Positions 34,228 to 59,818 of a stretch of 64,000 nucleotides of DNA are shown here, in pieces. The notes beneath the pieces are model-generated. The model was not told the DNA's origin. It saw only the letters and a list, made by a program, of their open reading frames with translations, and ran no database searches. The stretch lies in the NCBI RefSeq assembly GCF_003334355.1, contig NZ_QOWP01000010.1. One strand, given 5' to 3'. Both the position numbers and the translations under genes were made by a program. Source of the DNA: Escherichia coli (GTDB lineage: Bacteria; Pseudomonadota; Gammaproteobacteria; Enterobacterales; Enterobacteriaceae). Position 1 is the first letter of the stretch; each line of letters starts with the position of its first letter.

Positions 34228-34325
34228 GCCGGATGCGGCACGAGCGCCTTATCCGGCCTACAAAATCGTGCAAATTCAAAATATTGCAGGGGACGCGTAG
34301 GCCTGATAAGCGTAGCGCATCAGGC
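34228..34325. repeat. BIME: two REP (repetitive extragenic palindromic) units in inverted orientation
   Basis: gccggatgcggcacgagcgccttatccggcctac (34228-34261) and gtaggcctgataagcgtagcgcatcaggc (34297-34325) match the E. coli REP consensus. Confidence 0.8.
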
Positions 34326-54548: not shown

Positions 54549-54633
54549 TTTTTTGCCGCAGGTCAATTCCCTTTTGGTCCGAACTCGCACATAATACGCC
54601 CCCGGTTTGCACACCGGGAATCCAGGAGAGTTC

Positions 54634-55644
54634 ATGTACTACCCCTTCGTTCGTAAAGCCCTTTTCCAGCTCGATCCAGAGCGCGCTCATGAGTTTACTT
54701 TTCAGCAATTACGCCGTATTACAGGAACGCCGTTTGAAGCACTGGTGCGGCAGAAAGTGCCTGCGAAACCTGTTAACTGCATGGGCCTGACGTTTAAAAA
54801 TCCGCTTGGTCTGGCAGCCGGTCTTGATAAAGACGGGGAGTGCATTGACGCGTTAGGCGCGATGGGATTTGGATCGATCGAGATCGGTACCGTCACGCCA
54901 CGTCCACAGCCAGGTAATGACAAGCCGCGTCTCTTTCGTCTGGTAGATGCCGAAGGTTTGATCAACCGTATGGGCTTTAATAATCTTGGCGTTGATAACC
55001 TCGTAGAGAACGTAAAAAAGGCCCATTATGACGGCGTCCTGGGTATTAACATCGGCAAAAATAAAGATACGCCAGTGGAGCAGGGCAAAGATGACTATCT
55101 GATTTGTATGGAAAAAATCTATGCCTATGCGGGATATATCGCCATCAATATTTCATCGCCGAATACCCCAGGATTACGCACGCTGCAATATGGTGAAGCG
55201 CTGGATGATCTCTTAACCGCGATTAAAAATAAGCAAAATGATTTGCAAGCGATGCACCATAAATATGTGCCGATCGCAGTGAAGATCGCGCCGGATCTTT
55301 CTGAAGAAGAATTGATCCAGGTTGCCGATAGTTTAGTTCGCCATAATATTGATGGCGTTATTGCAACCAATACCACACTCGATCGTTCTCTTGTTCAGGG
55401 AATGAAAAATTGCGATCAAACCGGTGGCTTAAGTGGTCGTCCGCTTCAGTTAAAAAGCACCGAAATTATTCGCCGCTTGTCACTGGAATTAAACGGTCGC
55501 TTACCGATCATCGGTGTTGGCGGCATCGACTCGGTTATCGCTGCGCGTGAAAAGATTGCTGCGGGTGCCTCACTGGTGCAAATTTATTCTGGTTTTATTT
55601 TTAAAGGTCCGCCGCTGATTAAAGAAATCGTTACCCATATCTAA
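54634..55644 (+). CDS. pyrD: dihydroorotate dehydrogenase (quinone)
   Basis: Trimmed to the ATG at 54634 ([23 protein letters not shown], 336 aa). Confidence 0.95.
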
Positions 55645-56360: not shown

Positions 56361-57466
56361 CGCGCCAACTTAAGTGCAGTCTTCGGTACACAGCTACAGC
56401 AAAGAATGGTGCCATCATCGCCCATTGCTGATTTTTTCAGCGGCGTGACTTCGCCTTCTAAAAGCTGAACACGGCAACTTCCACAAATGCCCGCGCGGCA
56501 AGAATAAGGGATACGAATTCCCTGATTTTCTAATTGCTCCAGCAACACCTGTTGGTTATTTCCACGAAATGCCTGTCCCTGCCAGTCAATATCTACATTT
56601 GCGTCCGGTTGTTGCGTGATGTTGGCGGTATCATCAGCGGCAGCTGCGCCGTAAATTTTTGCCGGAGCCGTTGCCAGAATTTCCACCTCATCGCCAACGC
56701 GAATCACGCCGCTATTACGGGCAATTAAATTCTGACCAAAATCGACATCGCCGTTATCCTGGGCAGTGCGGAAAGATTGCAATGTTTTTAATGGTTCGCC
56801 TGCCGGATGTTTTTGCCCTTTTTCTGGGCTGACGGTGGTGAAAATACAGCGGCTACAAGGTTTAACCACATCAAACACCACATCACCAATGCGAATCACT
56901 TTCCAGCGATCTTCTTCCCAGGCTGACGCGCCGGAAACCACCAGATTGGGGCGGAATTGCTCCATTTTTACACTGGCCGGACAACGTTGTTGGAGATCAC
57001 GTAACGAGGCTTCGTTAGCAAGAAGGTAAGGATAGCCATCAGCAAATGACAGAGGTACAGTGTTGTGGCGTTTCACGCGCCGGGTCATTTGTGGCCCCAC
57101 CCAGCGTAATTGCACTTCGCGGGAGAAAAATCCACTTAGCCATTTGTTGATCGCGTCTGGCGCAATTCGCGCGGTAAAATGTGTGCCCCAAACTTCGGTT
57201 GGTGCGTCTTGTGTGGCGAAATCAGCAAAACGAACATATGCGCTACTGCCATCTGGTGCGGTGAGATGCAAGCCATCATGCACAGGTGAAGGAGTAAACC
57301 GTACCATCTGGGGAAACTGGCGAGCGGTAATAAACGTACCGTCAGGTTCCGTGATCATAAAGATGCGATCGAAGGCCAGACCACTGACATCTGCCAGAGC
57401 ATGTGTAAGACCAATGCCGCGCATCGATTTAACAGGATGAATAAAAAGCCGGATTAATGTCGCCAC
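56357..57466 (-). CDS. ycbX: MOSC-domain protein with C-terminal 2Fe-2S ferredoxin-like domain
   Basis: 369-aa ORF starting at a GTG (complement cac at 57464-57466); [17 protein letters not shown]; C-terminal Cys cluster CRAGICGSC. Confidence 0.85.
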
Positions 57467-57503
57467 GGTGCGGTCCTCAAATGAAAATAAGCCCTCAACT
57501 TTA

Positions 57504-57530
57504 TGACATGACGCGCTTATTAGCTATAAT
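57504..57530 (+). promoter_or_regulatory. candidate sigma70 promoter (TGACAT / TATAAT) facing rlmL
   Basis: tgacat (57504-57509), 15-bp spacer, perfect -10 hexamer tataat (57525-57530); about 180 bp upstream of rlmL. Confidence 0.3.
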
Positions 57531-57709
57531 GCGCAACAATTTTCTTAGCGCCTGTCCCATTAGGCTATTTTATTTGTCAGTTTGGCCCTGGGTTATGCTC
57601 GAAATCCTCACGTACTTGTGTACGCTCCGGTTTCTCCGCGCTGTCCATGTCCAGACTGACTGCAACAATTACGCCTACTGCGGTAGGCTCTTAGAGTAAA
57701 AGTGACGAT

Positions 57710-59818
57710 ATGAATTCTCTGTTTGCCAGTACGGCCCGTGGGCTGGAAGAGCTGTTAAAAACTGAACTGGAAAACCTGGGGGCCGTTGAATGCCAGGTGG
57801 TTCAGGGTGGGGTCCATTTCAAGGGCGACACACGGCTTGTTTACCAGAGCCTGATGTGGAGCCGCCTGGCCTCGCGTATTATGTTGCCGCTGGGCGAGTG
57901 TAAGGTTTACAGCGATTTAGACCTCTATCTCGGTGTTCAGGCGATCAACTGGACAGAGATGTTTAATCCTGGCGCGACCTTCGCTGTCCACTTCAGTGGT
58001 TTGAATGACACCATCCGCAACAGTCAGTACGGCGCGATGAAAGTGAAAGACGCGATCGTCGATGCTTTCACGCGGAAAAATCTGCCGCGTCCAAATGTTG
58101 ATCGCGATGCGCCGGATATCCGCGTTAACGTCTGGCTGCATAAAGAAACCGCCAGTATCGCTCTTGATCTGAGTGGTGATGGTTTACATCTGCGTGGCTA
58201 TCGCGATCGTGCTGGTATTGCGCCGATCAAAGAAACCCTGGCAGCCGCTATTGTGATGCGATCCGGCTGGCAGCCAGGAACACCGCTGCTCGATCCGATG
58301 TGTGGTTCCGGTACGTTGCTGATTGAAGCAGCGATGCTGGCGACCGATCGCGCACCAGGCTTGCACCGTGGGCGTTGGGGCTTTAGCGGCTGGGCGCAGC
58401 ATGATGAAGCTATCTGGCAGGAAGTGAAAGCGGAAGCGCAAACTCGCGCCCGTAAAGGCCTGGCTGAGTATAGCTCTCATTTTTACGGTTCGGACAGCGA
58501 CGCACGGGTGATTCAACGTGCACGCACTAACGCCCGTCTTGCGGGGATTGGTGAACTGATCACCTTTGAGGTGAAAGATGTCGCGCAACTGACCAATCCG
58601 CTGCCGAAAGGGCCGTACGGCACAGTGTTGAGCAACCCGCCATACGGGGAACGTCTGGACAGCGAACCGGCGCTGATTGCGCTGCATAGCCTGCTGGGTC
58701 GGATCATGAAAAACCAGTTTGGTGGCTGGAATCTCTCTTTGTTTAGTGCCTCGCCGGATCTGCTAAGCTGCTTGCAGCTGCGTGCAGACAAACAGTACAA
58801 GGCGAAAAACGGCCCGCTGGACTGCGTACAGAAAAATTACCACGTTGCCGAAAGCACTCCAGACAGCAAACCGGCGATGGTAGCGGAAGACTACACCAAC
58901 CGCCTGCGTAAGAACCTCAAAAAATTCGAGAAGTGGGCTCGCCAGGAAGGGATTGAATGTTACCGCCTGTATGACGCCGATCTGCCAGAATATAACGTTG
59001 CCGTTGACCGTTATGCCGACTGGGTGGTGGTGCAGGAGTATGCGCCGCCAAAAACTATTGATGCTCACAAAGCGCGTCAGCGTCTGTTCGATATTATCGC
59101 TGCAACCATTTCGGTACTGGGGATTGCGCCAAACAAACTGGTGCTGAAAACCCGTGAACGCCAGAAGGGCAAAAACCAATACCAGAAACTGGGCGAGAAG
59201 GGCGAGTTTCTTGAAGTTACCGAATATAACGCTCACTTGTGGGTGAACCTGACGGATTATCTCGATACTGGTCTGTTCCTCGATCACCGCATCGCCCGTC
59301 GTATGCTCGGTCAGATGAGCAAAGGCAAAGATTTCCTCAACCTGTTCTCTTATACCGGCAGCGCCACCGTGCATGCGGGATTAGGCGGTGCACGCAGCAC
59401 CACCACCGTGGATATGTCGCGTACTTATCTGGAATGGGCAGAACGCAACCTGCGTCTGAATGGCCTGACCGGGCGTGCGCATCGCCTGATTCAGGCCGAT
59501 TGCCTGGCGTGGCTGCGTGAGGCAAATGAACAGTTCGATCTGATCTTTATCGATCCGCCAACCTTCTCTAACTCAAAACGAATGGAAGATGCGTTTGATG
59601 TTCAGCGCGATCATCTGGCGCTGATGAAAGATTTGAAACGTCTGCTGCGTGCAGGTGGGACGATCATGTTCTCGAACAACAAACGTGGCTTCCGTATGGA
59701 TCTCGACGGCCTGGCAAAACTGGGACTGAAAGCACAAGAAATTACGCAAAAAACGCTCTCCCAGGATTTCGCCCGTAACCGCCAGATCCACAACTGCTGG
59801 CTGATTACCGCAGCCTGA
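57710..59818 (+). CDS. rlmL: bifunctional 23S rRNA methyltransferase (m2G2445 / m7G2069)
   Basis: 702-aa ORF; THUMP domain plus two methyltransferase domains; [25 protein letters not shown]. Confidence 0.93.

Follow-up and report, generated by a model that had tools for sequence, protein, structure and literature searches.

In Escherichia coli, the long leader of rlmL is very probably the product of an ordinary, conserved rlmL promoter that has been displaced by a 143-bp MITE (miniature inverted-repeat transposable element) inserted in the leader, with no dedicated regulator involved. The DNA analysed here, referred to as the window, is a 64-kb stretch that is identical to K-12-type E. coli genomes. 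Within it, ycbX and rlmL are divergently oriented about a spacer at 57467-57709, the 243-bp size of which, as given in an earlier note on this DNA, agrees with the limits of the two genes. That note described a near-consensus promoter far upstream of rlmL and a perfect palindrome close to the start codon, and suggested that a long structured leader on an rRNA methyltransferase gene could be either a regulatory element or a short independent transcript. The annotation of NC_000913.3 carries no feature at the ycbX-rlmL spacer. An 80-aa open reading frame called mechanically at 57457-57699, which begins inside ycbX on the opposite strand, spans both the spacer and the element; since it is impossible in alleles that lack the element, a genuine gene here is most improbable. 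The features of the region are collected in Table 1.

Table 1. Features of the ycbX-rlmL region, numbered by position in the window
Feature	Position	Strand	Remarks
ycbX	start at 57466	-	Borders the rlmL spacer
ycbX transcription start and -10-like TAAAGT	57490..57503	-	Hexamer at 57498-57503, from sequence; start by SMRT-Cappable-seq
rlmL promoter	57503..57530	+	-35 aTGACA 57503-57508; 16-nt spacer; -10 TATAAT 57525-57530
Main transcription start of rlmL and rlmL-uup	57537..57538	+	Cappable-seq and SMRT-Cappable-seq; leader of 172-173 nt
Left TTA of target-site duplication	57545..57547	.	Single TTA in the empty allele
Miniature inverted-repeat element, imperfect palindrome, 143 bp	57548..57690	+	Transcribed within the rlmL 5' UTR
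Left terminal inverted repeat, GCGCCTGTCCCATTAGGC	57548..57565	+	Family consensus end GAGCCTATCCCAT
Minor transcription start	57579	+	Inside the left arm of the element; Cappable-seq 1006936, score 2.04
Conserved core	57589..57647	+	Stems 57589-57595/57641-57647 and 57602-57606/57629-57633; apical stem 57611-57615/57620-57624
Right terminal inverted repeat, GCCTACTGCGGTAGGCTC	57673..57690	+	Family consensus end TGGGATAGGCTC; holds the palindrome at 57673-57688
Right TTA of target-site duplication	57691..57693	.	Single TTA in the empty allele; family flanks
Minor transcription start	57696	+	14 nt before the ATG, just beyond the right end of the element; Cappable-seq 1007053, score 2.94
rlmL (rlmKL) coding sequence	57710..59818	+	From the open reading frame list and RefSeq records for identical DNA; gene to which the promoter and leader above belong

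The rlmL promoter and its two leader alleles

A promoter scan identified a site with 11 of 12 matches to the sigma-70 consensus, the sole such site in the region. The earlier note had placed a promoter here correctly but read it as TGACAT-15-TATAAT at 57504-57530, a register that is one base off, the better reading being aTGACA-16-TATAAT. Sites with at least 11 of 12 matches number two in the 64-kb window, against 0.7 expected, and we judge the rlmL promoter to be real because of its conservation and the mapping of its start rather than its match score. The promoter block, AACTTTATGACA-16-GCTATAATGCGCAnCAATTTTCTT, is invariant in E. coli, Escherichia albertii, Klebsiella pneumoniae, Klebsiella aerogenes and Yersinia pseudotuberculosis, and its distance from the ATG is fixed across genera wherever the element is absent. 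The other high-scoring site in the window, TTGACA-17-TGTAAT, lies at 13582 on the + strand.

Published Cappable-seq data contain a + strand start at 1006895 (U00096.2; score 5.55), which corresponds to 57538 in the window, and published SMRT-Cappable-seq data contain one at 1007671 (v3), corresponding to 57537, from which full-length transcripts cover either b0948 (rlmL) or b0948 together with b0949 (rlmL-uup). Transcription of rlmL begins 7 nt past the -10 hexamer. Start-site mapping, which had been proposed as the check on a leader of about 170 nt, therefore upholds that estimate, with reads from the main start running into rlmL and through the rlmL-uup operon. On the reverse strand, SMRT-Cappable-seq maps the start of ycbX (b0947) to 1007624. 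The divergent ycbX and rlmL starts are 47 nt apart, implying that their promoters overlap back to back. In a published study, the reverse strand of this spacer was transcribed preferentially in vitro by the sigma-S holoenzyme.

When the spacer sequence was searched against 5426 complete genomes of E. coli, these fell into 4191 in which the site is filled and 1235 (approximately 23%) in which it is empty, the spacer in the latter matching in two pieces. The empty-allele spacer is 97 bp long (strain U13A). Alignment of the two alleles gives TTTTC-TTA-(GCGCC...GGCTC)-TTA-GAGTAAAAG for the filled state and TTTTC-TTA-GAGTAAAAG, with a single TTA, for the empty state. When the search was reversed, using the empty junction as the query against a sample of 45 genomes, two states only were found, with spans of 101 nt or 247 nt, and every filled genome in this sample differed by exactly 146 bp. 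The element is likewise absent from K. pneumoniae, K. aerogenes and Y. pseudotuberculosis, which have spacers of 98-99 bp and keep the same promoter, giving a leader of around 27 nt. Conservation of the promoter in these short-spacer genera implies that the ancestral rlmL leader was also about 27 nt long. The type strain of E. albertii is filled, with junctions identical to those of E. coli, and hence the insertion either predates the split between these two species or was exchanged across it. The empty allele found in E. coli could represent precise loss of the element, a retained ancestral allele, or spread or re-acquisition by recombination.

On the reading that we favour, the ancestral state would have been a sigma-70 promoter for rlmL-uup, with a start about 27 nt before the ATG, the ycbX promoter lying back to back with it. 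Within the E. coli/E. albertii lineage, a non-autonomous 143-bp MITE would then have entered a TTA located 8 nt downstream of the start and duplicated it, leaving the promoter 146 bp farther from rlmL. The element now belongs to the transcribed 5' UTR, its predicted fold there being a single long hairpin, and the palindrome lies within its right terminal repeat. Any effect on rlmL, whether through mRNA stability, access of RNase III or access of ribosomes, would be incidental rather than the outcome of evolved regulation.

Structure and dispersal of the element

The two ends of the element are imperfect inverted repeats: when the right end is reverse-complemented and set against the left, 13 of 18 positions agree. 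In agreement with the structured leader proposed previously, the region from 57549 to 57694 is predicted to fold as a single hairpin (-51.1 kcal/mol, z = -4.5); the opposite strand of the element is also predicted to form one hairpin (-50.9 kcal/mol, z = -4.2). The 6-bp perfect palindrome, GCCTAC/TGCG/GTAGGC, is present in the sequence as described, with the correction that it ends 21 nt rather than 22 nt before the ATG. Perfect 6-bp hairpins occurred in 25% of resampled 243-nt spacers, so the palindrome taken alone does not exceed chance. In the predicted fold, it appears as part of the right terminal repeat, pairing with the left end of the element, and not as an independent stem-loop.

The element is dispersed in E. 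coli, with a median of 5 copies per genome (range 1-8) and 6 copies in K-12-like genomes. Additional copies, which align with the element in the rlmL leader, are located between qseE and qseG (sense), pheM and pheS (antisense), pyrH and frr (antisense), and ucpA and cysP. The rlmL-leader copy is the only one in the 64-kb window. The pheM-pheS copy (L006, 1501-1648) occupies, in the antisense orientation, the interval that separates the pheST attenuator from the start codon of pheS. With this locus as query, coverage of at least 80% was obtained in 4782 of the 5426 genomes and fell below 80% in the remaining 644, suggesting that this copy may also be polymorphic.

Comparison of 30 copies with recognisable ends gave a family element length of 143-145 bp. 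The left flank is TTA or TAA in 27 of these 30 copies, and the 3-nt flanks are identical in 21, where 10 would be expected and none of 2000 shuffles gave more than 19. The element was also found in 161 plasmid records and in a few phage records. Among the plasmids, records H45-H55 (Klebsiella, Citrobacter and E. coli) contain copies of approximately 84% identity beside or within genes annotated as RND efflux permeases. The phage records include H78 and H79 (Yersinia phage vB_YenM_42.18) and H89, one Yersinia-phage copy being located inside a gene annotated as 'hypothetical protein'.

No orientation bias was detected relative to co-directional neighbouring genes (24 sense and 26 antisense, based on crude gene calls), and clustering of the open reading frames within 2.5 kb of 120 listed copies revealed no recurrent neighbour protein. 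The clusters that were obtained comprised generic ABC ATPases, sigma-54 activators and pseudo-open reading frames that read through the element. Together with the broken core pairs of the rlmL-leader copy described below, the absence of both an orientation bias and a recurrent neighbour is as expected of selfish or neutral DNA. Additional matches to the terminal repeats, considered as a possible autonomous parent, turned out to be deletion derivatives. Among the loci listed, no transposase-sized open reading frames are present between paired copies, and neither a cognate transposase nor an autonomous element with matching ends was found among the neighbouring open reading frames, or between paired ends, at the 120 listed loci.

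The element is thus small and non-coding, has terminal inverted repeats, is flanked by a TWA target-site duplication that is evident from the filled and empty sites, and occurs as dispersed and polymorphic copies, a combination that identifies it as a MITE. Members of the IS5 / PIF-Harbinger superfamily typically produce a 3-bp TWA (TTA or TAA) duplication. Judged by this duplication alone, a DDE transposase of that type would have mobilised the element in trans.

A conserved core and its relation to sX9

Relatives of the element were sought by scanning a single genome from each species for an exact word, which returned at least 120 loci. The word corresponded to the right half of the core, so that the invariance of the core is partly a matter of ascertainment and only the conservation of its left half is free of this effect. 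Full-length copies among the matches listed are found in many Enterobacterales and in Aeromonas, while those sharing only the core come from Burkholderiales, Xanthomonas, Lysobacterales, Silvimonas and many Chlorobium and Chlorobaculum assemblies. In the non-enteric copies, a core of approximately 45-55 nt is 80-93% identical to the E. coli element, whereas the arms and termini are lineage-specific.

Conservation of the core across phyla, beyond what would be expected of a neutral relic, and covariation in its stems allow for some function of the element in its own right. On this alternative, the sX9-like core would be a functional module of structured RNA or single-stranded DNA, with a role of its own wherever the element is inserted. 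We consider this unlikely. In its favour, the three core stems form pairs in 97.9% of the cells of a 106-sequence alignment, which holds 133 double changes where shuffles gave 34.6 and slid controls 8-16, and in which a T.G wobble is kept in 102 of the 106 copies. The Rfam model of sX9 (RF02228), an RNA detected in Xanthomonas, aligns in the same orientation to the family's right half (apical hairpin through 3' arm), and two Burkholderiales copies score 49.8 and 46.6 bits, above its gathering score of 44. Other relatives, including that of Serratia oryzae, score 41.6, 39.6, 38.0 and 37.1 bits. On the other side, transcription shows no bias towards one orientation of the element, folding energies do not favour the sX9 strand, and the invariance of the right half, which served as the search pattern, is in part a product of the search.

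Two further observations weigh against a functional core. Chlorobium sp. PL23b contains a short subfamily of 109-117 nt with the same terminal repeats, in which GGATAGGAGAGG stands in place of the core's apex. These short copies occur at five or more loci (L050:2644-2752, L052:3394-3510, L054:3197-3313, L055:8446-8557 and L051:7220-7335), suggesting that the apex is dispensable for spread in that genome. In addition, the rlmL-leader copy has TTA in place of CAG at 57593-57595, which breaks two core pairs; CAG is present both in the family consensus and in the E. albertii orthologue, and the pair-breaking TTA points to decay of the copy in E. coli. A different departure from the common structure is seen in Pluralibacter, Pectobacterium, Yersinia and Klebsiella (L015, L017, L025, L058, L078 and L087), where approximately 60 nt (…TTTGAACGCCCTTCAGGGCGGCCCnnAGGGTGAGCGnAGCGAATAA…) replace or interrupt the core-side left arm. 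This segment resembles another small unit, itself able to form a hairpin, lodged within the element.

In the Rfam search of the spacer, no family reaches its gathering score; the match of sX9 to the window copy covers 57610-57675 with 25.8 bits (E = 0.014). Elsewhere in the window, gathering-level matches were obtained to the PyrD leader at 54566-54639 (97.9 bits), upstream of pyrD, and to the ES036 (CssrF) sRNA at 34262-34304 (53 bits). Rfam curates sX9 as a 76-nt sRNA rather than as one half of an inverted-repeat element 143 bp long and flanked by target duplications, and the arms of the enterobacterial element differ from those in Xanthomonas and Burkholderiales. According to a published review, sX9 is among the most prevalent of bacterial 'sRNAs', a prevalence that fits a repeat. 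sX9 seems to represent one half of an inverted repeat that is mobile, which changes how its matches are to be read.

Tentatively, these relatives could be brought together as a superfamily of 3-bp-duplicating MITEs in Enterobacterales, Aeromonas, Xanthomonadales, Burkholderiales and Chlorobi, with varied ends and a common core of around 55 nt that has covarying stems, invariant internal loops and the T.G wobble. The E. coli copy would be a decayed member, sX9 would correspond to the right half of the element, and the core would be a functional single-stranded DNA or RNA module of undescribed role, carried about by differing transposon ends.

Readings of the leader and likeness to known repeats

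The second suggestion of the earlier note, a short independent transcript, corresponds to the possibility that the rlmL promoter makes an sRNA, predicted in Shigella as Ssr8, which ends at a terminator-like hairpin at 57550-57575. Directly after the start site, the left terminal repeat and the T-run that extends to 57575 do resemble a weak intrinsic terminator (57550-57565 plus TATTTTATTT), and in a published study Ssr8 was predicted in the SF0948/rlmL spacer of Shigella flexneri and was positive by RT-PCR. However, RT-PCR cannot separate Ssr8 from the leader of the rlmL mRNA, full-length reads from the same start traverse rlmL and uup, and the Term-seq supplements contain no entry for rlmL or for coordinates 10076xx-10077xx and hence no 3' end in the leader. 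Moreover, the hairpin is weak (4-5 bp), the predicted fold joins the left end of the element to its right end instead, and the product would be only about 38 nt long. We consequently regard this sRNA as improbable; the sRNA predictions in this spacer, Ssr8 among them, are likely to be artefacts of the leader or of the repeat.

The regulatory role that was suggested for the leader fares poorly. A dedicated cis-regulatory RNA of rlmL, be it an attenuator, a riboswitch or a feedback site for ribosome assembly, would be in keeping with the length of the leader and its very stable predicted fold, in which the hairpin base comes within approximately 13-19 nt of the ATG. Against this, the 146 bp concerned are the insertion of a dispersed repeat, and the structured part is precisely absent from the E. 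coli genomes with the empty allele and from Klebsiella and Yersinia, all of which retain the promoter and the ribosome-binding region. The same sequence also recurs at unrelated loci in both orientations, the cis-regulatory families of Rfam give no match, and no premature 3' end in the leader is listed by Term-seq. Regulation of this kind is very improbable.

If the leader is instead a conserved promoter displaced by a MITE, as we favour, the distant promoter and the palindrome require no special regulatory explanation, and the finding at rlmL is an ordinary one. The element may nonetheless have a regulatory side-effect on rlmL, and the natural E. coli alleles, with leaders of approximately 27 nt and 173 nt for the operon of an rRNA methyltransferase and uup, offer a ready test of the influence of a MITE hairpin in a 5' UTR. 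Only the wider family, with its conserved core that is partly represented in Rfam as an sRNA, might repay further work.

Amongst known systems, the Tourist-type MITEs (PIF/Harbinger-IS5) resemble the element in their small size, terminal inverted repeats and 3-bp TTA/TAA duplication. In contrast to these, it is the central core and not the termini that is conserved across phyla here, and no IS5-family partner was found at the loci listed. RSA, a dispersed intergenic repeat of enterobacteria, is an imperfect palindrome of approximately 150 bp, present in about 6 copies in E. coli K-12. We take the element in the rlmL leader to be, probably, this RSA (BEE95) repeat, given an insertion of 146 bp that occupies 6 places in K-12-like genomes, a likeness in size and copy number rather than one of aligned sequences. 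The title of Bachellier and Hofnung (1996), as cited in PMC3751351, equates 'BEE95' elements with RSA.

The repeats YPAL/RU-2 and RU-3 (the latter REP-type) were also considered and are unrelated, the best matches to the sequences printed in PMC2759123 being chance ones of 7-8 nt. No REP motif is visible in the spacer sequence. Membership of a classical E. coli family other than RSA is extremely improbable, since although REP/BIME, ERIC/IRU and YPAL repeats are likewise intergenic, palindromic and dispersed, the first and last of these lack similarity to the element as just described and a 143-bp length with a TWA duplication is unlike ERIC.

ERIC (IRU) is a 127-bp enterobacterial MITE, the sequence of which is presumably unrelated to that of the rlmL-leader element. 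The two are distinguished by length (127 bp versus 143 bp) and by the TWA duplication of the element described here. They are alike in being imperfect palindromes that reside in transcribed intergenic regions in either orientation, where each is predicted to give one long RNA hairpin, and ERICs in Yersinia have been reported to change the expression of neighbouring genes via such hairpins.
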